A DNA stretch of 32,000 nucleotides, taken from an uncultured Methanomicrobiales archaeon (GTDB taxonomy: Archaea > Halobacteriota > Methanomicrobia > Methanomicrobiales > Methanospirillaceae). Location: positions 333,085-365,084 of the forward strand of contig OY969100.1 of NCBI GenBank assembly GCA_963697895.1, given 5' to 3'. The notes under the pieces were generated by a model. That model worked only from the letters and a program-made list of their open reading frames with translations. It was not told the DNA's origin and searched no databases. Positions within the stretch are counted from its first letter, which is position 1, and every line of letters begins with the position of its first letter. The position numbers and the translations under genes were made by a program. Of the stretch, positions 10,296 through 31,292 are shown piece after piece.

Positions 10296-13200
10296 ATGGA
10301 ACTGGATCAGGATAAATTACGGAAGATCAGGAGTCTCCTTAAATTAAACCAGAAGGGGCTTAGTATTACCGAAATATCCTCGCGGCTTAAATTAAACAGG
10401 AATTCGGTCGCTAAGTATCTTGAACTGCTCTCCATATCAGGTCAGGTGGAGATGCATTCATACGGCTCCGCAAAGGTTTTTTATCTCTCGCAAAGGATTC
10501 CGTTATCAGCAATCCTTAATTTCTCATCAGATCTGGTCCTGATCCTGGATAACGATTGGAAGATCATTCAGATCAATGATCAATTCCTCCAGTTTTTCGA
10601 AGAAAAAAGGGAAAATATCATCGGAAAGGTGATCCAGGAGGTACCGGTTGATTTTGTCAGGAATCTCCCTGTGCAGGAGGTGATGAGCCAGGATAAGACC
10701 GAAGGAGAGACGATAACCGAGAAAGAGACGGTCATCCGGGGTGAGCCCCATTATTTCAGGATAAAATTTATTCCGTCCATCTTTGATGATGGCAGCGAAG
10801 GGCTCACGATCATTTTGGAGGATATCTCCAAAGATAAATGGCACGAACGCGAGCTTCAGATAAACGAGGCGAGATACCGGGCTATCGTGGAAGACCAGAC
10901 CGAGTTGATCACGCGGTTCAGGGGAGACGGCACGCTGACATTCGTAAATGAATCATGCTGCCGCTATTTCAACCGAGAACGCGGGGAACTCGTGGGATTT
11001 AATATGTTCTCCCTTATCCCGGAAAAAGACAGGGAATTCGTGAAGGACCAGTTCACTTCTATCACCTGTGAACATCCTGTTATTACCCTCGAACACCGGG
11101 TCATGCACCCTGAACTGGGTATCCGGTGGCAGCAATGGACCAACCGGGGCATCTGCGACGATGATGGGCAGATCATCGAGTACCAGGGAACCGGCAGGGA
11201 TGTCAGCGACAGGCGCGCGGCGGAAGAGAAAGCCTCACGATATTCAGCGGAGATGAAATTCCTTTCGGAGACGGCGATGTCTTTCGTCCGGGTCGCAGAC
11301 GAGACAGATATCTACCGGATCATCGGGGAAAATCTGAGACCGATCACTCCTCCGGATGCAATTATAATGCTCGAATCCTATGAGCGATCGAACAACACGG
11401 TGACTATCCGTGCTGTCCTGGACGAGAATGTCCGTGAAGAACTCATTTCCGTGCTCAAACGGGATCCGGTCGGATTGGTCTTCCCCAACGAAGAATCCCT
11501 GGGGCTGGGACTCCGGGCCGGTTCGTTCATTCATCTGACCGGAGGGCTCTCCGGGGATATCCGTCGGGTTTTGTCTGCTCAGATCCCGGAACAGACTCTG
11601 TGATGCCCTGGCCGAAAAACTCAAAATCGGAGACATATTTATATTCGGCCTTATATCTGACCACGGAGATTTCTTCGGGCATGCGATAATAATATGCAGG
11701 ACAGGAAAGCCGGTGGAGAACACGGGTATCATATCAGCCTATCTGAACCAGGCGTCTATCGCAGTACAGCGGGATTTTATGGAGGTAAAGCTTCGGAAGA
11801 GCGAGGAACAATTCAGGAATGTCGCAGAACTGTCTCCTTTCCCGGTATCCATCATAGACGCCAGTGATCGGTATGTGTATCTCAACGGGAGTTTCTTGCG
11901 GACCTTTGGTTACTCTGTCGAGGATATCCCGAACGGTGAAGCATGGTTCTCCCTCGCCTTTCCGGATCCGGAACTCAGGAGGAAGGCCAAAATCACCTGG
12001 AAGACGGATCTAGCCCGTGCTCTCCCGGGGGAAGTAAGACCACGGATATTTCCGGTAGTTACGAAAACCGGGGACTCCCGGGAGGTCCTGTTCCGGCCGG
12101 TGAAAATGTCGGATGGAAGACATTTCATCCTGTATGAAGATATCACCGAACGCCAGAAGTCAGAAAAAACCCGGAATCTTCTCGCTGCGATCGTTCAGTA
12201 TTCGGATGATGCGATCATCAGCAAGGCAACAAACGGCACAATAATGAGCTGGAATCCTGGCGCCGAGCGGTTGTTCGGATACGATGCGGAAGAGGTTGTC
12301 GGACAGTCCATCATGATCATTATTCCACAAAACCTCCACGAGGGAGAGCGGGATATACTGGACCGCGTGCGGAGAGGGGAGCATATCGCAGATTTCGAAA
12401 CCCTCCGGGTCCGGAAAGACGGGAAAGTCCTCAACGTATCTGAAAGCATATCCCCGATCTGCGATGAGAATTATGCTGTTGTGGGGGCTTCTTCGATCGT
12501 CCGGGATATTACCGAACTGAAAGCCGAGGAGAAACTGAAGGAAACCGAGGAACGGTACCGATCTCTCGTGGAAAATATCAATGTCGGTGTATATCGAAGC
12601 ACCGGTGACCCGGAAGGACGATTCGTCTGGGGAAATTCGTCCCTTGTTGAGATTCTCGGATGTGCATCCCTCGAAGTGCTGCAACAGGTCCCGGTGTCGG
12701 AGTTGTTCGTTATACCGGATGGGAGGAAAGAACTGCTGGACAAGTTAGAAAAACAGGGCTTTGTGAAAAACCAGGAGATCCATCTGAGACGATGTGACGG
12801 AACCCCTATCTGGGTACACGTCACCGCAACCGCACGGTTTTCCGAGACGGGGGAAATCGAGGTGATCACCGGTATCGTCGAAGATATCACCGAATGGAGG
12901 AAGATTAAGCAGGATCTGCAGGTGGCGCAAAAAGCGATTCAACATCTGGTGGAATGTAACCCTGACCCCTCCTGTGCGGTTGGGGGGGACCGGAAAGTGA
13001 TCGCCTGGAACAGAGCGATGGAAAAAGCGACCGGATTAACAAAAGCCGAAATAATCGGAAGATCGGGACTTGCGGAAGTAATGCCACAACTCGGGATAAA
13101 GCGGTCCCTGCTGGACGAACTCCTGGACCTTCCCCCGGAGGTATTGAAGGAACAATATCCTGATTGTTCTTCAATTCGGAGAATAACACCGGCAGAACCG

Positions 13201-13329
13201 ACAGAGCTGAGGGCTTTCGGGAACAATGAGGAACTCGAGGAGAAGATCTGCCTGTTTTATGGCCCGGACGGGAAATGCCATGGTGGGGTTGTCACCATCA
13301 CTGCTCCTCCGAAGCGGGAATCTTCCTGA
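10296..13329 (+). pseudogene. HTH-PAS multi-domain one-component sensor/regulator of about 1010 aa, interrupted by a single +1 frame change near 11592-11600 (ORF halves 10296-11603 and 11539/11713-13329)
   Basis: The N-terminus has a winged-HTH (GLSITEISSRLKLNRNSVAKYLELLSISGQVE). At least five PAS/S-box modules follow (EARYRAIVEDQTELITRF, EEQFRNVAELSPFPVSIID, LLAAIVQYSDDAIISKATNG, EERYRSLVENINVGVYR and others). No HisKA/HATPase domain is present. The +1 frame is open from 11539. It reads ...LCDALAEKLKIGDIFIFGLISDHGDFFGHAIIICRTGKPVENTG... with no start codon across the supposed 110-nt gap. Confidence 0.8.
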
Positions 13330-13487
13330 GCGCGATCAGATATCGCCTGATTACTTCAAGAGACGATCTTGACATAATTTTCGTATTAATATTAGGAAAA
13401 AAACATATTAAGAGATCATCGGGTTGTTTACTCCCATCTCTTATTACCTGATTAACTCTTCATACGGCCCCTTTCCCGGGATCGGGT

Positions 13488-13829
13488 TCACCCGGAGCAC
13501 TCAAAGCCACAGGATTCCTGATCGAAGGCATGCGTCTCGATAACCCGTTCGAGAGATTTGAGAACAAAGGCATCGAATGAATCTACTCCTTCCCAGGTCT
13601 CGACCCGGTACGTATCTCCTTTTCCCGGATGGCGGAATGCAATCACCCCTCCCCCAGAATCCAGTGTCGAGATGTACTTTGTCGCGAGGACAGCGAACCG
13701 GTTCGTATTTTTCACCTTTTCTTTCAACCATATGGTCACGGTCCAGTACGGCGCGCCCTCATCCGTTTCCACCTTCGCGTCGTTCGCAATTTCGAACGCC
13801 TTAATCTGATCTTTTGTAGTTTGTTTCAT
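13488..13829 (-). CDS. Hypothetical small protein (113 aa), family not recognised
   Basis: The composition is protein-like. A GAGGA SD-like element sits about 7 nt upstream of the ATG. The gene is convergent with the PAS gene and divergent from the AIR-synthase-related gene. Confidence 0.55.
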   Translation of the reverse strand: MKQTTKDQIKAFEIANDAKVETDEGAPYWTVTIWLKEKVKNTNRFAVLATKYISTLDSGGGVIAFRHPGKGDTYRVETWEGVDSFDAFVLKSLERVIETHAFDQESCGFECSG

Positions 13830-13973
13830 CGCCGTTCCTCAATGGCATTGCCTCATATAGCCGACATCTTCTTAAATCTGTTGGTCACATCGCCGGTACC
13901 GTTCATTCCTGTCAGGAAATCAAACCCGGTATTCATGATATCCCTTTTAAAACTCCCGGGCGTACACCTCATC

Positions 13974-15327
13974 ATGGATGCAGAGGAGTACGTCCGCCGT
14001 CGGATCTGTTCCGGGGCCGGAGATGATGAGATCTGCCGGGGACTTCGTGACCATATCATCCGGATCAAGGGATCGGCACCCGCAGAAGCGGAAGCATTTT
14101 CCCGTGCAGTAATTGAAGAGGTCAGACACACGCTGGGACTGACCGGGGATCTCTTTCGTTTCTATCCTGCAGGAGTAAGAATGGGGGAATTTGGGGTAGG
14201 TTCGCGGGGTACGGGAGATTTTTTCACACACCGCCAGATTGCCCGTGTCATCGGAAAGACATCAGCGTTCGTCGGCGTCGATGAAATGGACGATGCAGGC
14301 GCCATCCGGTATCCTTCCCCCCGTGGCTCTTCTGCTTCAGAACAACCCTTCATCATCTGTACCGTGGACGGAATGCACAGCCGGTTGTCTGATTTTCCCT
14401 TTCTTGCGGGTTTTCATGTTACCCGGGCGACACTGAGGGATGTATACGTGATGGGCGCCCATCCGGTCATGCTCTTTTCCGATATCCATGTGGCCGACGA
14501 CGGAGATATAGCCAAGATCTTTGATTACACAGCCGGGATCACTGCAGTCGGCGAAGTGATGGGGGTTCCACTGGTGACGGGATCCACGCTACGGATCGGG
14601 GGAGATATGGTGCTCGGAAGCAGAATGACCGGGTGTGTGGGTGCCGTCGGTATTGCATCTCACCTGACTGCACGAAAGGACGCCCGGCCCGGTGACCGGA
14701 TCCTCATGACCGAAGGAGCGGGGGGAGGGACCATCGCGACAGACTGCCATCTACTCCGGATATCCTGAAGTTGTCGATCATACCATTAACATCGACTTCC
14801 TCCGGGCATGCGAGGCGCTGCTCAGGAGTGACGTAATTGCGGGCATCCACGCAATGACGGATGTTACGAACGGCGGGCTGCGGGGTGATGTGTATGAGAT
14901 CGCCGAGACTGCACAGTGCCGGATCGTCGTCGAGGAGGAACAGGTGGCCGGACTCGTCCAGCCGGATGTTCTCCGCATGCTCGAGGCGCTCCGGATCGAT
15001 TATCTCGGCGTCTCGCTCGACGCCCTCCTGATCATCGCTCCCCCGGATAATATCGACGGGATCATGCGGGTAGTCCGCTCAACGGGGGTCGCTATCCGCG
15101 AGATTGGCCGGGTCGAAGTTGGAAGACCGGTTGCGGTCCTCGAGTCCGGAGGGAAAAAGCACGATTTCTCTCCGCGGTTTCGGGAATCGGCTTACACGCC
15201 GGTAAAAAAAGTTGTGGACCGTTATACGCGGGAATTTGATGAAATGAGCCGGGGAGTCGAACAGGCAGCGACTGCGGCTATAGAAAAGAAGGAACGGATT
15301 AAAAACCGTCTGATGGCTGAGAGATAA
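13974..15327 (+). pseudogene. AIR synthase-related (PurM/HypE/SelD superfamily) protein of about 450 aa, interrupted by a single +1 frame change at 14739-14746 (ORF halves 13974-14768 and 14743/14854-15327)
   Basis: The N-domain contains VDEMDDAG and TVDGMHS. The C-domain contains PGDRILMTEGAGGGTIAT. The +1 frame then continues TAIYSGYPEVVDHTINIDFLRACEALLRSDVIAGIHAMTDVTNGGLRGD without a stop. I chose the start at ATG 13974 (MDAEEYVRRR) because the longer ORF-track start overlaps the opposite-strand gene. Confidence 0.8.
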
Positions 15328-15339
15328 CAGATACTCAGA

Positions 15340-16065
15340 TCATTCCGCCTTCGTCCCGCTTGCGCAGATATTGTATGCAAGATAGGGCAGGCGCTTCTCG
15401 ACGAAGGGTTCCACTTTTTTCGCCAGATCGTAGAGTGGATCTGCCAGATTAATATGGGCAAATGAGCATCTTTTCACGGTAATATTCTCAAAACCGGCCG
15501 ATGAGAAGAGTTCTTCCATCTCCCGTTCTGAATAGTAATGCTCTCCAAATGCACCCATTCCGACGTGCCGGATCCTCATTGCCTCCCCGATGGAATAGAT
15601 GGCGGGAAGACCACGAGTAAGGAGATTTTTTCCGAGGGTACACACGGAAACGGTTCCTCCCGGCCGAAGCACCCGCTGGACCTCATCGAGCATCATTTCA
15701 GGTTTCTTCAGATAACTGAACGCAAGCAGACTGGAAACGGCGTCGAACGAGTTCTTTCTGAATGGCAGGAATTCGGCATTTCCAAGGGTGAACTGGCTCG
15801 TGCGGCACCGTACCTGTGCCTTTTCGATCATTCCCCGGCTGATGTCGAGTCCGACCACGACCCCTCCCGAAGCGACATATCTCCGGACAAACAGTCCGGT
15901 ACCGCATCCCAGATCCAGAAGGCGTACCCCTTTGGGGATTCTCTCCATGACCGAGCGGCTGATATGGTTATAGTAACTGATACCGCGTTTCCGGTCGTAC
16001 CGGTTGTCATAGACCTCGGCCATCTCGTCGTAATGCCGCTGAACCTTGGACTGCACAAGCGTCAT
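15340..16065 (-). CDS. Class I SAM-dependent methyltransferase (UbiE/Methyltransf_11-like)
   Basis: The ORF is 241 aa. Motif I is RLLDLGCGTG, and a post-I acidic loop VVGLDIS follows. The start shares an ATGA overlap with the upstream RFC-like gene (16062-16065). Confidence 0.8.
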   Translation of the reverse strand: MTLVQSKVQRHYDEMAEVYDNRYDRKRGISYYNHISRSVMERIPKGVRLLDLGCGTGLFVRRYVASGGVVVGLDISRGMIEKAQVRCRTSQFTLGNAEFLPFRKNSFDAVSSLLAFSYLKKPEMMLDEVQRVLRPGGTVSVCTLGKNLLTRGLPAIYSIGEAMRIRHVGMGAFGEHYYSEREMEELFSSAGFENITVKRCSFAHINLADPLYDLAKKVEPFVEKRLPYLAYNICASGTKAE

Positions 16066-17060
16066 GAGAAGATCTCCTGAATTATACGGGCGGAAAGCAT
16101 ATTCAGCTGAATATACTCATTGTTGCAATGGCCAATAATATAATCTGTTTCTCCGATGGCAGCTGCAATCCTCGGATCATTGTACTCCCTTCTGACAATC
16201 CCCCTCAGTTCCCGCAGAACTTCACGGGACGATAACCCGTATTCGATCATGAGAGACTCGAGACGGCGGTTCGCTGACTGCAGATCACCGGAACGCATTG
16301 CCATAAAGGCAGCAGCTGCCAACATACCGCTTTCACTCCGGGAAAAGAGCGTAAGATCGAACGGCTGGCCGGATTCCACTGCAACCTGAAGAAGCATTGT
16401 CGCCCTGCGGAGATCGCCCCTGGCGGCCTGTACAATAAGATCGACCTGATCGTCCGAACATACGGAGTCCCTGCGGGATTCCTCGTTAAGGATAGATTTC
16501 AGCCGGGCAAATACGAGATTTTCGGGGATAGGACCGCAAAAGAAAGGGAAACACCGTGAGCTGATTGCAGGTATGAGGCCCGTGGGGTGCGGCGTGCAAT
16601 ACACGAACCTGCAGGTTCTTGAGAACCGTTCCATGATCCGGCGTAATGCCTGCTGTGCTTCTCTCGATAATGCGGCGGCATCATCGATGACTATCAGCTT
16701 GAACTCCGTATCGAGAGGGCGCTGGGATGCATACCACTTGACGATGTACTTGAAATTAGAAAGAAGGCTCTGGTCTTTCTGGTACAAATGGGCGTATCGC
16801 TCGTCCTGCTGCAGATACTGCTTTCCAAGGGAGAAGAAATCGCCGGCCTGGAAGAGCGGAGCATTTTCACACCAGTTATCTGCATACAGGCTCCGGGACA
16901 GACATTCGACGCAGATACTTTTTCCCGTTCCCGGCGGACCGGTGAAGAGGAGATGGGGGACACTCCTTGTCCGGGCAAAGGACCGGAGCCGATCGACAAC
17001 CGGATCCTGCCCGATAATATCTTCAAATGTTCTGGGGCGGTACTTCTCAATCCAGAGCAT
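16062..17060 (-). CDS. Divergent replication factor C small-subunit paralogue (AAA+ clamp-loader-like)
   Basis: It begins MLWIEKYRPRTFEDIIGQ. Walker A is GPPGTGKS and the SRC motif is present. Walker B reads IDDAAAL instead of LDEADAL. An insertion of about 20 aa lies between Walker A and B. I chose the start at ATG 17060 because GGGAGGG lies 8 nt upstream. That start lies inside the 3' end of the upstream gene. Confidence 0.75.
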   Translation of the reverse strand: MLWIEKYRPRTFEDIIGQDPVVDRLRSFARTRSVPHLLFTGPPGTGKSICVECLSRSLYADNWCENAPLFQAGDFFSLGKQYLQQDERYAHLYQKDQSLLSNFKYIVKWYASQRPLDTEFKLIVIDDAAALSREAQQALRRIMERFSRTCRFVYCTPHPTGLIPAISSRCFPFFCGPIPENLVFARLKSILNEESRRDSVCSDDQVDLIVQAARGDLRRATMLLQVAVESGQPFDLTLFSRSESGMLAAAAFMAMRSGDLQSANRRLESLMIEYGLSSREVLRELRGIVRREYNDPRIAAAIGETDYIIGHCNNEYIQLNMLSARIIQEIFS

Positions 17061-17778
17061 GCTCCAGTCCCTCCCTGATCTCACGCTTTGCCTCCTGCAA
17101 GAGATAATGGTTATCCAGAGAACTGATCAGTTCTGCTGCCTCTTCCGGTTCGATCTCCCGGCAGCCACGGGTTATCTCCGGAAGCGCCCGGCAAACCTCG
17201 TCGACGATGGTAAGGGTGGCCGTCCGGGATGTTCGGGAGAGCGGATTGAGGTCGATCGCAATCACCTGTTTTCCCATCGCCCGGAGGGCTCCACACCGAT
17301 CACCGTCCTCGAGGGGTACCAGAATGAGATCTGCCGAGCCGATGCCTCCGGGCAGGCACCACGCTCTCTCATGGGAAAGGGGAATCAGACGCTGGGGTGT
17401 TCCGTTAAGTACAGAGACGTCGCAGGACTCCAGAAGATCGGTAATCCGGCGAATCCGCTCTTCTGTCCGGTGGAAGAGGTTGACCTCGACCAGCGCGCCG
17501 GATGCACGTTGCAGACGGGCGATCTCCCGTGCTGCGAGCCCCGCCGTATTCCCGTTCACAGAGATCACCGGCCGTCTGGCGGAAATAAGCATCGCTGCAG
17601 CGATCCGTTCCGCAATCGCTGCGCTTTCCGTTGTCTTTTCTCCTATCATATAATCAAATGCCTCTCCGCGTCCGTGTGCAACGAGCCCCTCAAAAGATAG
17701 AATTCCCTCGCGGGCAAGCAGAGAAAGCCGTTCACGCGTCACCAGGGAACGGTAACGAGGATGGTCCTCCGGTATCAT
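17047..17778 (-). CDS. Archaeal phosphopantothenate synthetase (4-phosphopantoate--beta-alanine ligase)
   Basis: The ORF is 243 aa. Family-typical motifs are HPRY, AHGRGEAFDY, SVNGNTA, NLFHRT, LEDGDR and IDLNPLSRT. It shares an ATGA overlap with the upstream pantoate kinase gene (17775-17778). Confidence 0.85.
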   Translation of the reverse strand: MIPEDHPRYRSLVTRERLSLLAREGILSFEGLVAHGRGEAFDYMIGEKTTESAAIAERIAAAMLISARRPVISVNGNTAGLAAREIARLQRASGALVEVNLFHRTEERIRRITDLLESCDVSVLNGTPQRLIPLSHERAWCLPGGIGSADLILVPLEDGDRCGALRAMGKQVIAIDLNPLSRTSRTATLTIVDEVCRALPEITRGCREIEPEEAAELISSLDNHYLLQEAKREIREGLEHALD

Positions 17779-18674
17779 TTTTCCACCCCGCAGAGACGAA
17801 AGCCTTCTGAAGCGACATGAAGACGGTAGACTTCCCCGAATGGTGAGAGCACAGAGATTGCCTGTTTGCCGAGAGCAAAAACACCGTTACCGAGCATCGT
17901 CATGCTTGAGGGGATCTCACTCGCATCACAGGCAGCTAACATCTCCCGGACCGGAGGCATAATCAGGCCGCTTCTCTCCGCGAAGATCCGGGATTTTCTG
18001 AAGAGATCCTGGGGATTTTCCGGGCAGCCACCGGGAAATGCCCGGTACACCGATTCCATAATCCCCGGGGAACCAAGAATAGTCGGAGTAGAAAGCGGAC
18101 TCCCTGTCACCACGGCGATCGTATCCGCGAGATCAAACCGCCTGATAATTCCTGCGCTGATACCGGGGCCGCAACGGCAGTCATATCCTCCACCCTGGCA
18201 TGCAGCGACATCCCCGAGTCCGGTTTGATGAACGATCTCCGATTCGTGTGCAAGTGCGGTACATTCCTCAGGCGAAAGGCCGATGGAGAAAAGGGCATTC
18301 AATGCAGTGGCTGAACCAAGGAGAGCGGCTGCACTCAACCCAAAACCGGCCCCGATAGGAAGGTGGCAGACTGTCCTGATCGATACCGTCACGTCCAGCA
18401 TGCCGATCAGGTATTCTACCGGCGGTGATCCGGCAATCTTCTCGACCACTTCGTTCCCCTGACCATACCGGTATATCATTACATCGGTAACCGGAGCGGG
18501 AGATGCGTACACGGTCACCCCTTCATCGATGACGATGCCTGCCCCGATGCTTCCACAGGTCTCCTCATCGTCTCCCATTACCGGGCGAAAATAACCCGAT
18601 ATATGACCCGGACAGAAAGCGACGGCAGTTTTGGACATATTCGGATCAACCCGCCGGAGGACGGTTCTTTTCAC
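17775..18674 (-). CDS. Archaeal pantoate kinase (GHMP kinase family)
   Basis: It contains AFCPGHISGYF and the GHMP motif LPIGAGFGLSAAA. The ORF-track start is GTG 18674. ATG 18638 (MSKTAVAF...) is an equally plausible start. Confidence 0.8.
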   Translation of the reverse strand: MKRTVLRRVDPNMSKTAVAFCPGHISGYFRPVMGDDEETCGSIGAGIVIDEGVTVYASPAPVTDVMIYRYGQGNEVVEKIAGSPPVEYLIGMLDVTVSIRTVCHLPIGAGFGLSAAALLGSATALNALFSIGLSPEECTALAHESEIVHQTGLGDVAACQGGGYDCRCGPGISAGIIRRFDLADTIAVVTGSPLSTPTILGSPGIMESVYRAFPGGCPENPQDLFRKSRIFAERSGLIMPPVREMLAACDASEIPSSMTMLGNGVFALGKQAISVLSPFGEVYRLHVASEGFRLCGVEK

Positions 18675-18779
18675 CCTTCAAAAAGGACGCGTATTAGCTT
18701 CGCCCTTTGATTATTAAAGCACTCGGGGAGCCGCGGGACCAATACGAACCCGTGCAGTGCCGGTTGTTCCACGAAAATT

Positions 18780-19973
18780 TCACCGTTCCCGGTTTTGCAT
18801 AATTTCCAGCACCCGTGACCAAATCGCATCAGCCGCATCTTCTTTCGTCCCGCTGCATCTGCCTCTCTGTTCCGCGGTGATCAGCCCGAAATCCCCGCCA
18901 GGGGCTCCCATTGCATCAGGGGTATTGGTCACCACGAGGGTAGCACCCCGGGAAAGCAGAGAAACTGCATCAGATTCCGGTTCCCACCCCATCTTGAAGG
19001 CGACGGTCAGCGGGTGGAACCCGTCGATCACCTCATTGAGAAGTTTCGGGAAAGGCTCGAGTTGTATCGTGGCACGACCTCCACTCTTCAGCTTACCCTG
19101 CAGTCGTTCCGGCGCAAAATCCGAGATAGCCGCCGAACTCACGTATATCTCAAATGCTTCATTCCGGAAAAGATCGAGCACAGCAGTCCGCATATCCCCG
19201 GCCGATGTAGCAGAAATATTCCTCACACAGGGGAACTTATCGCCATGGACAACCGTCACCTCGGCTCCGAGCCGGAACGCCTGGAGGGCAAGGGCTCTTC
19301 CCATCTGTCCGGTTGACCGTGTGGTGAGTACCCGCACATCATCAATGGGCTCCATGCACTTTCCACTCGTGATAAGCACCCGTATTTCAGCAAGGGGGTG
19401 GCCGAGAAGCGCCCGTTCGCACTCCAGCACAATTCCTTCACTATCAGAAATTTTTGCTTTTCCCTCTTCAATTCGAGGCTCAACAACGGAAATACCCCAA
19501 CTCATGAGGCGCTCGATCCCCGCGGTGACGGCAGGATGACGGTACATGCTTTCATGCATCGCCGGCACCAGGACGACCGGCATTCCCCTGCCTATCGCCG
19601 TCGTCGCGAAGGTGGTCACCGGGGTATCGTCGATTCCTGCGGCGATCTTCCCGATGGTGTTTGCCGTGCAGGGCGCGATGAGGAGAAGGTCTGCCCCTCC
19701 ACCCTCGCCACAATGGGCGACATGCTCTACGAGACCGGATATCTGCGTGATAACCGGCCTCTCCGTCGCATATACGAGGGCGTCCGGGTGTATGATCCTG
19801 GTCGCCGCTCCGCTCATTACAACAGTGACCCCTGCCCCGCGTCGCCGGAGCATATGCACGATCCTGACCGTTTCGACAGCTGCGATGCTTCCCGTTACTC
19901 CGAGGACGATCTCTTTTCCTTCGAGCGTTCGGAGGTTGTTCACCGGCATCTCACATCCTGTACCCAGTGCCAT
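18780..19973 (-). CDS. coaBC: Bifunctional phosphopantothenoylcysteine decarboxylase / phosphopantothenate-cysteine ligase
   Basis: The flavoprotein domain is GKEIVLGVTGSIAA...APCTANT. The DFP domain is ITSGKCMEPIDDVRVLTTRSTGQMG. An alternative start at ATG 19949 would shorten the overlap with the upstream gene. Confidence 0.88.
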   Translation of the reverse strand: MALGTGCEMPVNNLRTLEGKEIVLGVTGSIAAVETVRIVHMLRRRGAGVTVVMSGAATRIIHPDALVYATERPVITQISGLVEHVAHCGEGGGADLLLIAPCTANTIGKIAAGIDDTPVTTFATTAIGRGMPVVLVPAMHESMYRHPAVTAGIERLMSWGISVVEPRIEEGKAKISDSEGIVLECERALLGHPLAEIRVLITSGKCMEPIDDVRVLTTRSTGQMGRALALQAFRLGAEVTVVHGDKFPCVRNISATSAGDMRTAVLDLFRNEAFEIYVSSAAISDFAPERLQGKLKSGGRATIQLEPFPKLLNEVIDGFHPLTVAFKMGWEPESDAVSLLSRGATLVVTNTPDAMGAPGGDFGLITAEQRGRCSGTKEDAADAIWSRVLEIMQNRER

Positions 19974-20809: not shown

Positions 20810-20811
20810 GT

Positions 20812-21849
20812 CTAATCCACCAGGATAAGGATATTTCCGTCCTTCAATACCTGCACCGTCTCTCCCGGGCCGATTTCGGACCGCTTTCCGACCGGAATCT
20901 CCCGGGTGATTCCGGTATCCTGTTCGATAACCCCGATTATGTCCCCGTCCCGGAACGCAACGAGGGCCTGCTTGGCATCACGGGAATTCCCGATCACCCG
21001 GTTCACCTCTTCCAGACGGGTGGTTCTGACCGTTCCACTCAGGAGATCGGTGTACCGGATACTTTGCTGATCGACCTGCATAACCTCCCCGTACCTCCCT
21101 TTAACCTCGATGATGTCTCCCCGGGAGAACCGCGGTAATCGCACCAAATAGGTGACCCGGTAAACCTGCCTTCCTGCCTTCTCACCGATGAGTTTCGGGT
21201 GGGTTGTAACCCTCCCTCCCAGTCTCCGGCAGATCGCAAGGGCAATTTCATGCCCTATATGCTGGGAACCAACGGTTATATCCAATCCATCCCGGGTCTC
21301 CTCGATCCTGACGATAAACGAGAGGCGTTCCCCGCCGGACTGCATCGCGTCTTCCAGCTCGGTCGCAATCCGTCCGGCTGTTTCCACTTCATGAAGGCTG
21401 GGTTTCCGTCCTGTAGCCCGGACCTGGACGACCCCTTCGTGGTAATTCCCGCTGATCCGGTTACAGCGGTCGCATTGTTCTTTCAGCCACGCAATCTCCA
21501 CCTGACATTCCCCTTCCACCGGGATGCCATAGAGCAGCCCCTCAACGGTGACACGGGCGGACGACCGGTTTACGGTGTTCTCCCGGATAGCCATCCGGAG
21601 GGAAACCTGTTCCAGGTTCGGGTGGAGATACAGGCCTGTCCGCACTAGTTCCGGCCCGAGGGAATCCCGATCGAGGGTGGTATCGGTCCAGGTATTCCCG
21701 GATTTCTGTGCGCCGCATACCGGACACCGGACACTGATCACCCGGGATTCCGATCGGAGCCAGGGAGTCTGCTCCACGCGGCATTGAGAGCATGTTCCCT
21801 CGTCTTTCACGGGTCTTCCGCAATGTGGACAGATCTGCTCGGTGATCAT
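20812..21849 (-). CDS. NMD3-family protein (archaeal homologue of the 60S export adaptor)
   Basis: The ORF is 345 aa. The N-terminus has Cys pairs CPHCG...CSQC and CPVCG. Overall length and layout are typical of archaeal NMD3-like proteins. Confidence 0.7.
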   Translation of the reverse strand: MITEQICPHCGRPVKDEGTCSQCRVEQTPWLRSESRVISVRCPVCGAQKSGNTWTDTTLDRDSLGPELVRTGLYLHPNLEQVSLRMAIRENTVNRSSARVTVEGLLYGIPVEGECQVEIAWLKEQCDRCNRISGNYHEGVVQVRATGRKPSLHEVETAGRIATELEDAMQSGGERLSFIVRIEETRDGLDITVGSQHIGHEIALAICRRLGGRVTTHPKLIGEKAGRQVYRVTYLVRLPRFSRGDIIEVKGRYGEVMQVDQQSIRYTDLLSGTVRTTRLEEVNRVIGNSRDAKQALVAFRDGDIIGVIEQDTGITREIPVGKRSEIGPGETVQVLKDGNILILVD

Positions 21850-21853
21850 TACA

Positions 21854-22147
21854 TCAGAGCCTGAGGATCTGGGCGTGCGGTATCGTTCCGAGCATTATAC
21901 AACCGGACTTATCGATGAACCCTCGGGAGATTGCGAGCGTGATAACCCTCGGTCCCATGAGGTTTGCATTTTCCGCCCGTTCAAGCGCTGAGCAGACCTC
22001 TTCCGGAGTAGCCGGACAGTTGCCGTAGAACTTTTCGGATACGCAGATATCGATATCACCATATTCTATGCGGGTATTCAGAAGTTCCCGATCACATGCG
22101 GCTACCACTTCATTGCCATCGGGTGTTCGGTGGATCTTTAAATACAT
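21854..22147 (-). CDS. DUF424-family small protein
   Basis: The ORF is 97 aa and begins MYLKIHRTPDGNEVVAACDRELL, which is typical of DUF424/COG2412. A TATA-like TTATATTTTTAATA lies at 22170-22183 upstream. Confidence 0.65.
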   Translation of the reverse strand: MYLKIHRTPDGNEVVAACDRELLNTRIEYGDIDICVSEKFYGNCPATPEEVCSALERAENANLMGPRVITLAISRGFIDKSGCIMLGTIPHAQILRL

Positions 22148-22282
22148 CGATCATTATGGGAGGGTTGCGCTATTAAAAATATAAGCCGTGACACCCGGAA
22201 CCGCCCGATCCCGAAGAATATCAGGATGTCAAAATTTCTATCCTCTCCGTATATGGCTTCTCCGGCTACGAGCAGGTCTGCC

Positions 22283-23110
22283 TCAAAGAACTATCTCGAC
22301 CCCGTATACCTGTGCCGGGGTCTCGGTGTGGATCCGGTGTACATCTTCCTCCTCGATCATCTCCTCACCCAGCAGCCGAAGGGTAAACCGTGGAACCGAT
22401 TTCGGACCGATTACAGCTCCTGGCCGGGAGAGTTCATCCATATAGTCGCTCTCCATCATGAACCTCCTTCCCGCACGACAGAGTTCAGGTATATCGGGAT
22501 TCCTGGCGATGAGGGAGGGGACGAGAGGGGTTTCCCCCGATCCGTAATGCTTTACAACCCGATCCGGTGGCATGCCGGCTTGACGCGCGATCTCCGGTAC
22601 ATCCGCACAGGGGCCGGACTCGGCATGTATCTGAACTGCACAGTCGCACCGGCTACCAAGGGAGAATGCATGGCGGAGCACCTGATTCGATGCGTTCCAT
22701 ACGGGATCCGGCACCTCGTAATGGGGGCGTCCACTTTTAAGGGCGTACGCCGACCCTTCGCGGATGTAATCCGCAGCAATATCAAGTCCCCCCTTCATGA
22801 TCATCACAGCATCCTCGAGGGACATGCTCTCAGACAGCTGGGTGAGCTCGGCTGGATGCACCCCGAGGATTGGAAAAACAACGAGGCCGATCTCGCGACA
22901 ACTACACGCAATGTGGAGGGTTTCGTCAAATATCTGAATGTAATCCTCAGGTGAACGAGGAAGGATTCCGTGGGAACCGGCCGGTTTGTTAACCAGGAAG
23001 AGATGTGTGCCCCCGACACGCTGAAAATCACGTGCCGCCTCGATACCCCGCCCGTTAACCGGGTCCAGGTGAATATGATCATCGGTGATCGGAAACGGAG
23101 GCGTCTTCAT
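22283..23110 (-). CDS. TatD-related metal-dependent hydrolase (TIM barrel)
   Basis: The ORF is 275 aa. The N-terminal metal-binding motif is ITDDHIHLD. Later His/Asp ligands are present (VQIHAE, HYGSG). Confidence 0.7.
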   Translation of the reverse strand: MKTPPFPITDDHIHLDPVNGRGIEAARDFQRVGGTHLFLVNKPAGSHGILPRSPEDYIQIFDETLHIACSCREIGLVVFPILGVHPAELTQLSESMSLEDAVMIMKGGLDIAADYIREGSAYALKSGRPHYEVPDPVWNASNQVLRHAFSLGSRCDCAVQIHAESGPCADVPEIARQAGMPPDRVVKHYGSGETPLVPSLIARNPDIPELCRAGRRFMMESDYMDELSRPGAVIGPKSVPRFTLRLLGEEMIEEEDVHRIHTETPAQVYGVEIVL

Positions 23111-23441
23111 CGCATTCCACGATCTCCATCAGAGGATATCCGCCGGCTCTGTGCAACCGCGCATGACAGGAGGCTGTTCCTACCCGTGTTCTGATCTCCA
23201 CATCAAACATTAATCCCTGGACCTCTGAATACCCGAAGGCATTGGGATTCATCAGTCCTCTGTCGAGTCTCACCTTAATTTCCTCGACGAAAGGCTGCAA
23301 AATCACGCTTTTTTCGATCGCCTGCTCGATCACCGGGGATATAGCCGGAGAGACCGGTGTGCCGACCCACTGATGATAGAGGGCGCCGAGTTTGATCGCC
23401 GCTTCAAATATTGCGCGATCCCGGTCGCTCGCCATGATCAA
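23079..23441 (-). CDS. mptD: Archaeal dihydroneopterin aldolase-like protein (MptD / COG2098 family, methanopterin biosynthesis)
   Basis: The ORF is 120 aa. The stretch RAIFEAAIKLGALYHQWVGTPVS resembles the MJ0408 family as I recall it. No search was run. Confidence 0.55.
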   Translation of the reverse strand: MIMASDRDRAIFEAAIKLGALYHQWVGTPVSPAISPVIEQAIEKSVILQPFVEEIKVRLDRGLMNPNAFGYSEVQGLMFDVEIRTRVGTASCHARLHRAGGYPLMEIVECDEDASVSDHR

Positions 23442-23466
23442 GGATAGGGGGTCACGGGTTATTAAA

Positions 23467-23487
23467 AGAGGATCCTTCAGATCCTCT
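23467..23487 (-). terminator. Perfect 8-bp hairpin followed by TTTT downstream of mcm
   Basis: The stem is AGAGGATC paired with GATCCTCT, with a 5-nt loop. On the minus strand it is followed by TTTTAATAA. It lies between the mcm stop (23560) and the mptD start (23441). Confidence 0.4.
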
Positions 23488-23559
23488 CAAAGGAAAATAT
23501 ATTAAGGTGGGAGATGGAAGAGGTCGCTTTTCCGGTAAATTCCGGCCATTTCCGGGGAT

Positions 23560-25695
23560 CTAGAGAAGTTTAATATTTCCCGACTTTGGCTCCATCGCCT
23601 CACCACCCCGGCGGAGCATCTCCAGCACGTTGAGTATATCATCCCGGGAAAATCCGCGCTGGGCTATGAGACCGATCACATCGTCCACCTTCGCCCATCC
23701 GCTCGGATCGGCGATATCCCGAATCACCTCCTTCGTGGTCCTGATCAGATCCCTTTTCCCCTTGGAGATCCCGGTGACGACTTTATCGATATCGAATGTT
23801 CCGGACTTTGCATCATACGCCACCTGTCGAAGGCAGGTATCGACGATATTGACCACCCGTTCTGCATCTGTCAGTTCGATCGTGTTGGAGAGCCGAATAC
23901 GTGCACTTGCCTCTGCAAGCCTCACAAGAGCCTCCAACTGCCGTGCCGTTACCGGCACGGGTTTATTGGTATCTGCAAGGTCCCGGAGTTTCATATAGTA
24001 AGCGATGAGAGATTCCTTTGCCTCCGACGTGAGGCGCGGGAAACAGGTCCGTTTTGCAAATGCCACATATTTCCGGAAGAACTGGGGATCTATGTCCGGT
24101 GTCACGGGCTTTAATTGTTCCTTTATGAACTCATCCGTCACCCCGTGGATCGGGGAATGGGCATGCTGGACCATCAGCTCCCCAATTCCATGTGCCTTGA
24201 GGATGTGATCCGCGATAGCGCTGTCACGCTTATGATCGGGACGATCCGTCATGATAAAGATAAGGTCGAACCGGGAGAGGAGTGAGGCTGGCATATTTAT
24301 CTGGTCACCAATCGGCGCGAAATCATCAAACCTGCCATATTTGGGATTGGCTGCCCCGAGGAGGGCACACCGGGACTTGAGCGTCGCTGTAATGCCGGCT
24401 TTTGCCACACTGATGGACTGCTGCTCCATCGCTTCATGGAGTGCACTCCGGTCCTCTTTATGCATCTTGTCCATCTCATCGACTGCAGCGATTCCCTTAT
24501 CTGCCAGGACGAGCGCTCCTGCCTCCAGCGTCCATCGTCCATCCCCGAACTCATCCTTCACTGCCGTTGCGGTGAGGCCTGCGGATGTCGAGGATTGTCC
24601 ACTCGTATAGATCGCCCGCGGTGAGAGCTTGACGACGTACCTGAGGAGCTGACTCTTCGCGATCCCCGGATCACCAATGAGGAGCACATGGATATCCCCA
24701 CGAAGATGACTTCCGTCCGGCATTTCCTTGGCTATTCCTCCGAAGATCTGGAGTGCGATCGCTTCCTTAACGTCTTCGTTCCCGTAGATGGTCGGCGCAA
24801 TCGAATGGACGATCTTCCGATAGACCTGCGGGTCTTTTGAAAGGTTCCGGATCTCTCCCTCATCCCTCTCGTTGATCTCCACCTCCTCAAATTCCTTCTC
24901 TGCGATCTCGATGGAATTGCACTCCATATAGATGTCAAATATCGTGCTCTTGTCCCCGTGTGTGATCCTCTGAACAGACCGCAGTATCCCGTTCACGACG
25001 ATACGATCTCCGGGAGCTACGATTCCGGTCAGGTCGTCTGTGACATCGACATCGATCGTCTGGGGCTGTTCTCCTCCGCGCAACCCTTCGGGCGATTCCT
25101 GAATCCGCAATTTCTGGGAATCAACAAACCGTGAACGCTTCGGCACAAGCTCGATCTTTTTAAAGGTGCATCCGTCTGTGGCACAACCGTCCGGCTCCTG
25201 GAATTTCCCGTATCCCTGTTTCTTCTCGGTAAAGTGACCGGCCGGGCAACGGAAGACCGCATGGACAACCCGCGGCCTTACTTCGGTCGTCTTTCGAAGG
25301 ATGCCCTCAACGCTGATGAACCGGTTGATGTCATCTGCCCGAATCTCGCGAATACCAGTCTTCCTTGGGAGATTGATGAACCGAATGTTGATGGTCGTCC
25401 CTTCTTTCTTATTCCGGGCCCTGAACAGCTGGTGGTTTTTGATGGCATTCTGCACATCCTCCAGCACTTTGCCCGGGTTTTCCAGGATTTCATCTGCTAT
25501 CCGGGTTCCCGTCTTCCCGTAACTGACCACATCCCGATAGTCGATCGCGAGCGAACGCCTGAAAGGATACTCCCGCGTCAGCTCACCAAGTTGTTTTTTA
25601 TACCGTGATTTGAGGAATTTACTCCAGTCGGCATCCCGGTCCGTTATCTCCGGGTTTTCCGTTTCCTGCATTTCTCCCATGTAACTTCCTCTCAT
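23560..25695 (-). CDS. mcm: Minichromosome maintenance (MCM) replicative helicase
   Basis: The ORF is 711 aa. Walker A is GDPGIAKS and Walker B is [26 protein letters not shown] and the Arg finger SRFDLIF are present. No intein is visible. The start shares an ATGA overlap with the rfcS stop (25692-25695). Confidence 0.95.
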
Positions 25696-26664
25696 TTACC
25701 GCTGCGCCGGGCGTGCATCACGAACTGGGCAATCAGGGCTTCCATCTGGATCTCCGTGTCGGCGCCTTCGGAGAGGCGGAAATCGGTGACCCCGAGCCGG
25801 TCTATCAAAGCCACTTTTAAACCCTGATCCATGTCTCTTTTAACCAATGCGCGGTAACATTGGCTTATTAATTCCGGTGGGGCGATTCCCCGTTCGTTCA
25901 GCAGGCGATCCATTACCATCTCAGCCCCGTCGAAATCGCCCGACAGGGAGAGAGCTGAGCAGCTCTTCGATCTCATCCGGCCGGGCACTCGATGTAATGG
26001 CATATACCCGCCCTGCATCGATATCCGGGCTGATGATCGCTGCGCCCTGCAGGGCATTGATCGCCTTTCGCATGTCTCCCTGGGAGATGTACACGATCGC
26101 GTCGAGAGCTCCGTCGGTAAGATTCAAGCCCTCGCATTGAGCGATTCGGAGCATCTCTTTGATAACTGCATCCCTTCTCAGTGGTCTGAAACGATAAATT
26201 GCACACCGGCTCTGGATGGGATCGATGATCTTCGAGGAATAGTTGCAGGAGAGAATGAACCGGCATGTCTGGGCAAAATTTTCCATGGTCCTTCGGAGGG
26301 CGGACTGTGCATCCGGGGTGAGCGCATCCGCCTCGTCGAGGAAGAGGATCTTGAAGCCTGCACCGCCAAGGGGGGAAGTCCGTGCGAACTGCTTGATCTG
26401 GTTCCGCACGACGTCAATTCCCCGCTCGTCCGAAGCATTCAGTTCCCGAAAATTCAGGTGCCAGTTATCTTTGAAAAATTCCCGTGCAAGGGCTACTGCT
26501 GCGGTCGTCTTCCCGACTCCGGCACTCCCGGTGAACAGAAGGTGCGGCAGACTCCCACTCCTGACATACGATGCGAGTCGCTCGATGATCTCTTCCTGCC
26601 CCACGATATCCGCCAGTTTCAGGGGCCGGTATTTCTCTATCCATATTGCCTGGCTCTCCTCCAT
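25692..26664 (-). pseudogene. rfcS: Canonical replication factor C small subunit of about 323 aa, interrupted by a single +1 frame change near 25953-25957 (ORF halves 25921-26664 and 25692-26057)
   Basis: It contains WIEKYRP, Walker [10 protein letters not shown], Walker B FLDEADAL and SRC. The upstream frame ends ...[21 protein letters not shown]. The other frame continues [32 protein letters not shown]...[17 protein letters not shown], which is the normal RFC C-terminal domain. Skipping one base at 25956 gives the same spacing as the P. furiosus RFCS sequence as I recall it (ARP + 7 + 8 residues to ..G.F). Confidence 0.85.
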
Positions 26665-27088
26665 GAATGACCACTCCCTCTCCCAGTTAGATCATGATCT
26701 ACAATGATGTAATCTATTCTCTATATGATTCCCTCCCGCGTGGTGCGGAGGTGAAGAAGTGTGCCTTTATACTAGTAGCTATCCGTGGAAAGCGTTTCGT
26801 TAATCTTGAATCATCATTTTCCAATCTCATCCCGGTGAATTCATTCTGGTGTGAACCGATGCCTGCACCACATTGCGCACCAGAGAGGAATATCTGTCTT
26901 CTATGAAGGAATGCAAGGTTTATTCCAGCCAAGGGAATGGATGGATGAGTGTTCACAAACAGAAGGGATATCACCTGATATGTCAAAAAAATACGGGTAC
27001 ATGCATTGCTTGCATCTGTGGATCGGTTCTCTTGGATCGGAGGAGATCAGCTAGGCGAAGCCAATATTAATAGGCCGCAGGGAAGGAG

Positions 27089-27862
27089 ATGGAAGCAGCA
27101 GCACGGGTATTTGCGGGCGAATTCAATCTGACCACGCTCGAGGTGGAAGCGAACGAGCCGGGCGACTCCACCGGGGTTATCACCCCGGGGGGATTGCACT
27201 GTACCCGTCTCTTCCTTTCAGGAGCCCTCATCTCGGTCGAGGGGAGTAAAGGTGAAGGGATGCATGCCCGGCTGGCAGACCCGACCGGGGTCTTTGGCAT
27301 CTCCACGGACTGGCGTGATGACCATGTCTCTTCGATCCTTGCATATTTCACGCCTCCGGTCTTCGTTACCGCCATCGGCATGGCACGGCTATTCAGGCGG
27401 GGTGGAAAAGCCATCCCCGGGGTAACACTCTCTGAAATCAGGGAAGCAGGAAGAGATGTGAGGGACACCTGGGTGATCCATACCGCCGCCGACTCACTCA
27501 TCCGACTCCGGGCATTGCAGGCAGCGGTAAGTGGCGGCCCCTCCCCGGGCGATATGAATCGGGTAATATCCCACTATCGGGTTGACCGACAGATGATACA
27601 CTGTCTAGCCGGAATCGCAAGATCAGCACTTGATAAGGTGACTCCTATTTCCGGAGGAGCGATTTCACCGCGTGAAGACAGGGAAGTCATTTATGAGATC
27701 ATCACCGCACAGAGCGGTCCGCGGGGGATTGCTGTGACCGACCTTATCTCACGCGCCGGAACAAAGGGTCTCGATGAAGCCGCCGTTACCCGGGTGCTCG
27801 AGGCACTGATACGGGAAGATGAATGTTACCAACCATCGCCGGGGATCATTAAGCTCTTATGA
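27089..27862 (+). CDS. RPA-associated OB-fold protein (RPAP / COG3390-like) with a C-terminal winged-helix
   Basis: The ORF is 257 aa. The call rests on gene context, since it is followed by a phosphoesterase and an Lhr helicase. The C-terminus is wH-like (EVIYEIITAQSGPRGIAVTDLISRAGTKGLDEAAVTRVLEALIREDECY). Family assignment is from memory. Confidence 0.5.
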   Translation: MEAAARVFAGEFNLTTLEVEANEPGDSTGVITPGGLHCTRLFLSGALISVEGSKGEGMHARLADPTGVFGISTDWRDDHVSSILAYFTPPVFVTAIGMARLFRRGGKAIPGVTLSEIREAGRDVRDTWVIHTAADSLIRLRALQAAVSGGPSPGDMNRVISHYRVDRQMIHCLAGIARSALDKVTPISGGAISPREDREVIYEIITAQSGPRGIAVTDLISRAGTKGLDEAAVTRVLEALIREDECYQPSPGIIKLL

Positions 27863-28623
27863 GACTCGAATTCATCGATTCCGGTCCGGCTCTGGTGGTC
27901 GAGGGAGATTCGAACCGTGTCCTGGTGGCCGCTGACCTGCACCTGGGAATCGAGGCAGACATGGCAGGTCATGGGCTGCATTTCCCGAGCGGGAGCTTCC
28001 GGAGGCAGGAGCGGCTCATCGGGTGTATCCGGGAGACAGATCCGGACCAGATCCTCCTCCTCGGGGATATAAAACACAGTATACCCGGGACAACGCGTCA
28101 GGAATACCGTGAGCTCCCGTCATTGATTGCCGCTCTCCGGCGGGAAGCCCCGATCCGGATAGCACCCGGAAATCATGACCCGGGGCTGGAACGGTTTCTC
28201 GATCCGGACGAACTGCTTCCCATGGATGGAGCACTTATCGATGATGTCGGGTATCTCCATGGTCATACCTATCCGGCCCAGGCACTTGCAGGACACCTTA
28301 TCATAACAGGGCACCATCATCCGCTGGTCTCACTCCGGGATGAAGTCGGATGTTCTCTCCGGGCCCCCGCATATCTTCTGGCGGATATTGCGGGTAAATG
28401 TTTCCGGACGGGGGCATCCGGGGAGGAAAAAACGACCCGTGCGCTTTTCGTTCCTGCATTCAACGAGTATGCAGGTTATGACATCCTCCAGATCCTTGAC
28501 AAACCATTCAGCCCGCTTTCCCGCTGTATTCAACGCGAGAGCGCGGAGATCTTCCTCGCCGACGGGACATTTGTCGGACCGATCTCAGTGGTGGAGACCC
28601 GTGAACCGCATCAGACATCTTGA
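27859..28623 (+). CDS. Calcineurin-like metallophosphoesterase (Rpe / COG1407-like)
   Basis: The motifs are DLHLG, GDIKH, GNHD, GHTYP and GHHHP. It overlaps the upstream gene by 4 nt (27859-27862). Confidence 0.8.
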   Translation: MRLEFIDSGPALVVEGDSNRVLVAADLHLGIEADMAGHGLHFPSGSFRRQERLIGCIRETDPDQILLLGDIKHSIPGTTRQEYRELPSLIAALRREAPIRIAPGNHDPGLERFLDPDELLPMDGALIDDVGYLHGHTYPAQALAGHLIITGHHHPLVSLRDEVGCSLRAPAYLLADIAGKCFRTGASGEEKTTRALFVPAFNEYAGYDILQILDKPFSPLSRCIQRESAEIFLADGTFVGPISVVETREPHQTS

Positions 28624-31292
28624 CGAACGGGTGCAGGCATGTATCAGGAAACGGGGATTTATCGAACTCTCTGAGATTCAGGACCAGGCAATTCCCCGCG
28701 TACTTGCCGGTGATCACCTTCTCCTGATCGCGCCGACCGGCACGGGTAAGACCGAGAGTGCTATGCTGCCTGTCTTTAACGGAATGCTTTCACTACCGGC
28801 GGGCGGGTTCCGGGCGATCTACATCACACCCCTGCGATCCCTGAACCGGGATATGCTTCAGCGGCTGGAATGGTGGTGTCGTGAACTCGGGTTTTCGGTC
28901 GGTGTGCGGCACGGGGATACCCCGCTCTCCGAACGGCGCAGACAAGCCTTGAATCCCCCGGATCTGCTCATCACTACCCCGGAAACCCTCCAGGCAATCT
29001 TTATGGGAAAAGTGCTCCGGCGTCACCTGCAGCATGTCCGGTACATCATTGTCGATGAGATTCATGAACTGGCCGGAAGCAAACGGGGCGCTCAACTGGC
29101 AGTCGGTCTGGAACGACTGATCCCTTATGCGGGGGAGTTCCAACGTATCGGACTATCCGCAACGGTTGGGAACCCCGAGGATGTTGGCCGATTTCTCTGT
29201 GGAGCGCGGCCATTCCGGATCGTCCAGGTCCCTGTTGCCAAACATCTCGATATATCGGTCACATATCAGGGGGATTCGTTTGAACGTGAGGCGGCCTGGG
29301 TCGGGGATTCGATAGACAGGCACGGGTCCACACTGGTCTTTGTAAATACCCGGGTGACGGCCGAGGCGCTCGGGCATCAGCTTTTCTCCCGCGGGGATGT
29401 GGAAGTACACCATGGCTCGCTCTCGAAAGAAGTACGAATAGATGCGGAGGAACGGTTCAAATCAGGGAAAATTCATGCCCTGATCTGTACTTCATCGATG
29501 GAACTCGGGATCGATATCGGTCATATAGAGCATGTGATCCAGTTTGGCTCCCCGCGTGAAGTCGCCCGCCTCGTCCAGCGGGTAGGAAGGGCGGGACATC
29601 AGACTTCACACGGTTTCGCGGGGGACCATCCTTGCGACCGGATTTTCCGATCTCCTCGAGTCGCTTGTGATCGCACGCAAAGCAAAGGAAAACGAGGTCG
29701 AACCAGTCCTGTTGCACATTAATGCCGCGGATGTGATGGCAAACCAGGTTGCGGCGATGGCGGTGGAATATGGCGAGATTGAAAAGACCCGGGTTCTCGC
29801 GTGCCTTGAGCGGACCGCTCTTTTTCCCGTGTGTGCACCGCTCCTGGACCAGGTCTGTTCCCAGATGGCGGAGCACCGGCTTATTCGCATTGAGGGATCG
29901 CGAATCATAACCACTGCCCGCGCCCGGAGATATCTCTCCCTGAATCTTTCCATGATCCACGATGAGCGAAAAGTCCCGGTATTCGATATGGTCTCACGCC
30001 GCACGGTCGGAACGCTCGACGAATCGTTTGTTGTCGGATGGATTCATACCGGCGCGATCTTTATAACAAAAGGGCAGCTCTGGCGGGTCCTCGACATGGA
30101 AAACGGGCAGATCACCGTCGAACCGGCAAAACGCGCTAAAGGAGAACTCCCGTCCTGGGAAGGAGAGCAGATCCCGGTCCCCTATAGTGTCGCGGAGGAG
30201 GTCGGGGAGTTCAGGAGAACTCGGGCGGTTAAGAACTACACCCGGGAAGAGAATTCCATATCATTTGCTCTCCGTTATCTGGAAGAAATGGATAAGAATC
30301 GCTCTGCCGTGCCTGACGATACCTGCATCGTCCTCGAAAATGCACCAGAAGGTGTTATCGTCAATGTATGCGCCGGCCATAAAGCAAATGAGGCCCTTGC
30401 ACGGGTGCTCTCCATCCTGATCTCTGCTCGCTATGGCACTACCGTGGGGATCGAAGTGGATGCCTATCGTATTTATCTGAGGCTCCCCGCCGATATCCGG
30501 GCAGCGGATGTCAGGGACCACCTGGTCGACCTGAACCCCGATCACCTGCAGGGAATTCTTCAGCTTGCAATGAAGAGAACTGCGCTTTTCAAATGGAAAC
30601 TGGTACAGATCGCCAAAAAATTCGGGGCGATCGATGCCGATGCCGACTATGAGCGGATCAGTATCCACCGGCTGACAGAACTCTTCGATAATACGGTTGT
30701 GCAGAGAGAGGCCTATCGCGAACTCTTTTCCGTGTACATGGACGTCGAAACGGCCGGGCGGGTTGTTCGGCGGATCCGGGAAGGGTACATTCGGGTGATG
30801 ACCGGACCGGTGAGCATACTCGGTGCTGAAGGCCTCTTCTCGTCCCGCGATCAGATGCAACCTCCATCTGTTGATCAGGCAGTGATCAGCACGCTGAAAC
30901 GGAGACTCGAAGAGCAGAACGTCATTCTGGCATGCATGAACTGCAGACAGTGGAAGAGCAGGACGGTCGTATCGCGGGTGCCGGAGAGGCCGATATGCCC
31001 GAAATGTGGTGCCCGCCTGATCGCCGTTCTCAAACCATGGGAAGAGGATCTCTATGCCCAGGCAAATAAGAAAAAAAAGACAGAAGAAGAGCGAAATATC
31101 GAGATACGCCTGATCAGGAATGCCAATATCGTCCTATCGAGTGGCAGGAAAGCGGCTGTTGCACTCGCGGGGAAAGGGGTAGGGCCCGATAATGCATCAC
31201 GGATCCTGGCCACCCTCGCCACCGGAGACACCTTTTACCGCGAGATTCTGAAGGCAGAGCGGAACTATATCCGCACCCATCGGTTCTGGTGA
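28601..31292 (+). pseudogene. lhr: Lhr-type superfamily-2 DNA helicase of about 896 aa, interrupted by a single +1 frame change at 29600-29606 (ORF halves 28601-29722 and 29601/29667-31292)
   Basis: Motif I is APTGTGKTE, motif II is VDEIHE, motif III is LSATVGN and motif VI is QRVGRAGH. After GRAGH(Q) the other frame continues (L)HTVSRGTILATGFSDLLESLVIARKAKENEVEPV.... The C-terminal zinc ribbon is CMNCRQW...CPKCGARL. A likely GTG start at 28601 (VNRIRHLDERV) has GGTGGAG upstream. Confidence 0.85.

Follow-up and report, generated by a model that had tools for sequence, protein, structure and literature searches.

The recoding events established in Archaea comprise stop-codon readthrough and a single -1 frameshift (PMC8211752). 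In that one established frameshift, fucA1 of Saccharolobus solfataricus, two open reading frames (ORFs) jointly encode one conserved protein by way of a -1 shift on an A-AAA-AAT heptamer (PMC8211752), and in programmed +1 frameshifting of the prfB, antizyme and Ty1/Ty3 type one base is skipped to yield a full-length conserved protein. Broken frames may also reside in the record of a genome: the residual errors of nanopore Flye drafts are mostly insertions (PMC8011154), consensus errors cluster in methylation motifs that were not in basecaller training (PMC6591954), and A/G and C/T ambiguity has been reported at methylated sites (10.1101/2024.01.12.575342). Here we describe a stretch of 32,000 nucleotides from contig OY969100.1 of an uncultured Methanomicrobiales archaeon (hereafter the window), in which four conserved genes, encoding a PAS sensor, an AIR-synthase-related protein, the replication factor C small subunit (rfcS) and an Lhr-type helicase, are each split by one surplus base. 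We consider it likely that these four frame breaks are context-specific consensus insertion errors in the deposited 2.09-Mb contig and not features of the organism's DNA.

The locus shares something with each of these systems. Like fucA1, it presents archaeal genes laid out in two ORFs that jointly encode one conserved protein; unlike fucA1, it requires a +1 shift, lacks a slippery heptamer and involves several unrelated genes within 25 kb. With programmed +1 frameshifting it has in common that one base must be skipped for a full-length conserved protein, whereas conservation among orthologues, a fixed codon phase, a slippery- or hungry-codon arrangement and a stimulatory element are all missing, and an insertion is found in a spacer too. 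Long-read (nanopore-type) errors tied to sequence context or methylation motifs resemble the present case in their recurrence at a specific context, in the spurious frameshifts they cause in conserved genes, in their absence from independent assemblies and in differing between assemblies of the same strain. The documented examples are, however, mainly substitutions or changes of homopolymer length, whereas here a single base follows CAG outside homopolymers.

The proteins of the window are on record from one NCBI/ENA contig of 2,091,725 bp. For comparison, independent metagenome assemblies (JGI and Logan; contigs L002-L018) were fetched via homologues of the repaired rfcS and AIR-synthase-related proteins; these contigs of relatives match the window with 86-98.5 % nucleotide identity and jointly span 6751-32000, the ~25 kb over which indels were listed. 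Logan contigs from runs ERR12036778 and ERR15459715 were compared by gene layout and encoded proteins. A scan of the genome collection with NMD3 returned a distant Methanoregula as its sole match (52 % identity, L001), which was used for synteny and junction residues, not for placement at the DNA level. Pfam assignments were taken from syntenic relatives and from Pfam domain matches. The features in question are the following.

10296-13329, plus strand: PAS sensor gene, in ORFs 10296-11603 (435 aa) and 11713-13329 (538 aa), with PAS domains by Pfam.
11592-11597, plus strand: break site 1, with surplus A at 11595 (CAG[A]CTC) or surplus C at 11596 (CAGA[C]TC).
13974-15327, plus strand: AIR-synthase-related (PurM/HypE-like) gene, whose first ORF ends at 14768 and whose next ORF is 14854-15327.
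14740-14745, plus strand: break site 2, ACAG[A]CTGCC, with surplus A at 14743.
25692-26664, minus strand: rfcS, in ORFs 26664-25921 and 26057-25692.
25953-25957, minus strand: break site 3, coding strand TCAG[C]TCTCTCC, with surplus base 25954 (G on the plus strand).
28601-31292, plus strand: Lhr-type DEAD/DEAH helicase gene, whose first ORF runs to 29722 and whose second is 29667-31292.
29600-29605, plus strand: break site 4, TCAG[A]CTTCAC, with surplus A at 29603.
9254-9257, plus strand: a fifth window-specific insertion, in the spacer between two TPR genes, TATCAG[A]GCCCCCCCC, with the A at 9257.

A preliminary description of the window, made from its sequence alone, had reported four +1 breaks, each requiring the removal of one base and none in a homopolymer, and both ORF translations and alignment to relatives bear this out: the downstream part of every split gene lies in the +1 frame, the ORF pairs overlap or adjoin, and no surplus base stands in or beside a run of the same base. 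Equally sound are the positions it gave for CAGACT (11592, 14740 and 29600) and for CAGCT on the minus strand (25953-25957). Its further proposal, that the surplus base is the A of CAGACT, stands by DNA alignment at 14743 and 29603; at site 1 the base may be the A or the C of 11595/6, and the CAGCT of rfcS is to be read as CAG[C]T. Comparison with the relatives over the whole of 6751-32000 showed no isolated frame-breaking indel in coding DNA other than these four, all of which are single-base insertions.

Sixteen independent contigs of relatives have all four genes unbroken. At site 1, alignment of the window (CAGACTCTGT) with the relative L014 (CAGATATGT) places CAGACTC opposite CAGATA, and deletion of either 11595 or 11596 produces a PAS ORF of 1010 aa, where L014 has a single gene of 1009 aa. 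The surplus base of site 2 is missing in three of three relatives, which read ACAG-CTGCC (L016) or ACAG-CAGCC; removal of A14743 restores TIATAAIYSG, matching the Methanoregula homologue, and the AIR-synthase-related gene is whole in relatives at 450 or 494 aa, its best protein homologue being 94 % identical. In rfcS the relatives read TCAG-TCTCTCC, the base being missing in all 12 that cover the site and also in L017 and L018, and every homologue at 98-99 % identity has 323 aa. The eight relatives covering site 4 uniformly lack the extra A and read CCAG-CTTCAT or CCAG-CTCCAC; GRAGHQLHTVSRG at this site is conserved across the family, and the intact protein of relatives has 896 aa. The spacer insertion at 9257 (TATCAG[A]GCC) is flanked by sequence that aligns cleanly to L014, the sole relative covering it, and is probably a consensus error likewise.

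Fragment ORFs of 541, 157, 538 and 435 aa are on record under the 2.09-Mb public contig, which makes the breaks part of the deposit. No exact match was found in the protein collection for repaired rfcS, Lhr, AIR-synthase-related or PAS protein. Two metagenome pattern scans for site 2 gave no matches; as they also missed the known JGI relatives, they are uninformative. Contigs of ERR12036778 and ERR15459715 encode proteins identical to those of the window (NMD3, the methyltransferase, the metallophosphoesterase and the 538-aa PAS ORF) and accordingly represent the same strain. The ERR12036778 contigs show Lhr as one gene of 896 aa beside a neighbouring gene identical to that of the window (a homology search did not return this Lhr); their AIR-synthase-related gene is broken in precisely the manner of the window (157-aa ORF, 85-nt gap); and the PAS gene is split otherwise, into a 464-aa N-terminal ORF and its partner across a 23-nt gap, 1418 nt from start to start. 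Simulation showed that this last layout arises only with one further base added within 11435-11600. ERR12036778 and the deposit thus carry, respectively, two surplus bases and one in the PAS gene, none and one in Lhr, and the same state in the AIR-synthase-related gene. Three sites that compare with the deposit in three different ways (absent, identical, one base longer) point to the behaviour of ambiguous reads, not to a fixed genomic feature. As a separate observation, two same-strain contigs of ERR15459715 stop 82 nt short of break site 4 and ~230 nt short of site 2; these ends might be assembly-graph breaks near ambiguous positions, or coincidence.

The coding sequence downstream of the breaks offers a second line of evidence. 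Substitutions assigned to the window's branch fall at codon positions 1/2/3 of the repaired frame in numbers of 5/3/45 downstream and 3/1/26 upstream of the break in Lhr, and of 2/2/12 downstream and 3/5/21 upstream in the AIR-synthase-related gene. There is one break per gene, and the repaired frames contain no further stops. The retained third-position bias and the lack of further stops indicate that the downstream parts have been translated in the repaired frame throughout the history of the lineage; by the same bias, the genes have not decayed. For rfcS, the contig L017, from an unrelated run (SRR10156753), is 98.5 % identical to the window over 1072 bp and is without the base at 25954. 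Its 10 differences from the window upstream of 25954 all lie at third codon positions, and L017 is therefore a genuine close population under purifying selection. The replication clamp loader, including the small subunit encoded by rfcS, is essential, and the one rfcS paralogue of the window, which lies nearby, is ~30 % identical to it. Given what is established about the replication machinery, it is implausible that a clonal genome would carry an rfcS that is truly broken. We also note two adjacent transitions relative to L017 at 25918-25919, by which Ala becomes Met in rfcS (EAVMD versus EMVMD); close relatives carry one or the other residue, and the difference is probably natural polymorphism.

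It is in the light of these results that genuine mutation must be weighed. The surplus bases could be strain-specific mutations or variants within the population, with the PAS sensor and the AIR-synthase-related gene, for example, as recent pseudogenes, and such a reading can draw on the fragments in the public deposit and on ERR12036778, which with its window-identical proteins has the AIR-synthase-related gene split identically and the PAS gene split too. Yet the same run shows Lhr intact and another indel state in the PAS gene, and the reading must accommodate breakage of the essential rfcS, a population at 98.5 % identity that lacks the rfcS base, and constraint that has not relaxed downstream, with no further disabling mutations. 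Moreover, only a special mutational process could account for four to five independent recent +1 events directly after CAG in 25 kb. We therefore regard genuine mutation as unlikely.

What sets the surplus bases apart is their context. Each lies directly 3' of a CAG that is itself preceded by A or T, with CAGA[C]TC as the possible alternative at 11595/6; the inserted base is A at three or four sites (9257 included) and C at one (25954, coding strand), and three of the four coding sites would read CAG followed by CT before insertion. For three random positions to share the preceding trinucleotide the probability is P = 3.4e-4, and the CAG pattern is non-random even when post-hoc choices are allowed for. 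The search for a longer common motif around the sites found none beyond (A/T)CAG and then pyrimidines. The preliminary description had instead singled out CAGACT as a hexamer enriched at the breaks and as their possible target. This does not hold, the window containing 11 copies against 10.65 expected from shuffling. The copies at 8545, 15727, 18367, 21766 and 26548, in intact genes or other conserved sequence, are kept in relatives, and only the three at the breaks are window-specific, from which it follows that CAGACT is a product of the insertion and not its target. The regularity that replaces the hexamer is insertion directly 3' of CAG, usually before CT.

A context of this kind also invites an explanation in terms of a DNA process directed at the motif, for instance blunt cleavage between CAG and CT in the manner of AluI or PvuII, followed by repair that adds an untemplated base, usually A. 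The pre-insertion CAG-CT of three of the four coding sites would suit such a process, as would the identity of the inserted base (A at two for certain and at a third probably), and the varying indel state of same-strain assemblies could be heterogeneity of the population. We nevertheless judge it highly improbable. An insertion in rfcS would kill the cell and could not rise to the frequency of a consensus; the sites at 25954 (CAG before TCT) and 9257 (CAG before GCC) are not AGCT; 40 copies of CAGCT in the window, both strands counted, carry no inserted base after the G; and the Pfam assignments show neither a nuclease nor a DNA methyltransferase gene in the window.

The explanation that we favour, consensus insertion error, would have assembly or polishing write one extra base after the G at a minor fraction of the (A/T)CAG sites, chiefly those followed by CT, while the real genes would be intact and normally translated. 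Reads would be ambiguous at these positions in a context-dependent manner, possibly owing to an unmodelled DNA modification near CAGC/AGCT that makes the basecaller waver between G and A or between C and T, and the consensus might then keep both calls in tandem, giving GA where CAG precedes CT and CT in rfcS. A single contig of 2.09 Mb is typical of long-read assembly; the long-read platform, the ambiguity at the level of reads and the role of modification are nonetheless things that we infer. That each inserted base is the transition partner of its neighbour was considered as support for tandem calls and carries no statistical weight, since any insertion outside a homopolymer between a purine and a pyrimidine satisfies it. 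Two other technical origins, a 454 flow-order or TCAG-key effect and a Nextera mosaic end (…GAGACAG), were rejected by reasoning alone: two sites read ACAG and not TCAG, and the TACG flow order does not permit a C to be added after G and before T. Among the candidates of the preliminary description, it is thus the context-specific sequencing or basecalling error that comes out ahead, the bases being missing in relatives, the indel state differing within the strain and constraint being undiminished.

Several considerations tell against consensus error and temper our confidence. The evidence is that of assembled contigs and gene layouts. The literature searched did not yield a CAG-specific insertion artefact. 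Only some four to five of the ~1,080 CAG copies in the window (both strands counted) are affected, so that CAG alone does not determine the error. The 25 kb of comparison showed no homopolymer errors, an unusual outcome for a long-read consensus that is noisy in general, so that a specific dependence on context has to be assumed for the error; their absence suggests an assembly that is otherwise accurate, with its fault confined to the CAG context. Finally, were ERR12036778 a short-read run, at least part of the population would truly carry the breaks in the AIR-synthase-related and PAS genes, an outcome to which we assign a low probability.

Least well supported is the proposal that the surplus bases are real and tolerated, either through programmed +1 ribosomal frameshifting or through removal of a nucleotide at the RNA level. 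Recoding would indeed accommodate the +1 direction of all four breaks, the purifying selection that still acts on the downstream frames and the presence of an essential gene among those hit. The breaks are, however, kept in no orthologue, every one retrieved being in frame. The preliminary description had noticed that codon phase differs between sites, and CAG in fact occupies all three phases, starting at codon position 1 (sites 1 and 4), 2 (site 2) and 3 (site 3), which argues against ribosomal frameshifting. There is no common slippery codon able to re-pair in the +1 frame, and the 90 nt that follow each site show no stronger folding than shuffled sequence (z-scores -0.03 to -1.2). Neither the same-strain assembly without a break in Lhr nor the like insertion in a non-coding spacer (9257) fits a mechanism that acts on expression. 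Scans with Rfam and for tRNA gave no matches. With phase, orthologues and downstream RNA structure all failing to support it, the recoding or editing that had been offered as a candidate seems to us extremely unlikely. We give just as little credence to a compound scheme in which untemplated nucleotides are inserted 3' of (A/T)CAG and bypassed, in rfcS included, by RNA deletion editing or context-directed +1 decoding, and transcriptional slippage is dismissed by the lack of a homopolymeric run at any site.

The deposited sequence really contains the frame breaks, but the organism most probably does not. If they are artefacts, the deposited genome probably holds many spurious frameshifts, at a rate of about one per 6 kb in the part comparable with relatives, and these would be annotated as pseudogenes, distorting metabolic and essential-gene inferences for this methanogen lineage. 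An extra base right after CAG, usually before CT and outside homopolymers, is a searchable signature by which such errors may be flagged and repaired, and one that, if linked to a modification, could reveal the modified motif. If the bases are real, an essential replication gene would need a mechanism of expression-level correction that is unknown in Archaea.

The window belongs to a Methanomicrobiales archaeon of Methanoregulaceae type, and its closest named relatives are Methanoregula, Methanolinea and metagenome-assembled genomes of Methanoregulaceae. From ~15.3 kb onward, the gene order comprises a UbiE-type methyltransferase, an RFC-like paralogue, genes of the coenzyme A pathway, TRM5, NMD3, DUF424, TatD, DHNA, MCM, rfcS, a 257-aa protein, the metallophosphoesterase and Lhr. 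The paralogue is a second RFC-like AAA+ gene (16062-17084, minus strand; ~332-340 aa) with DNA_pol3_delta2 and Rep_fac_C domains, located 9 kb from rfcS; it shares the ~30 % identity to rfcS given above, is conserved in all relatives and is too short for a typical archaeal RFC large subunit. Three spacers (13329-13460, 23477-23544 and 26669-27076) contain many small indels relative to relatives at 90 % identity, while the neighbouring genes are gap-free; this looks like ordinary divergence, and it restricts the detection of more artefactual insertions outside genes. In composition, the window has a G+C content of ~54 %. GATC is very frequent at 335 copies in 32 kb and near its Markov expectation of 318, AGCT is mildly under-represented (52 copies against 66 expected), and CTAG is rare, with 6 copies.

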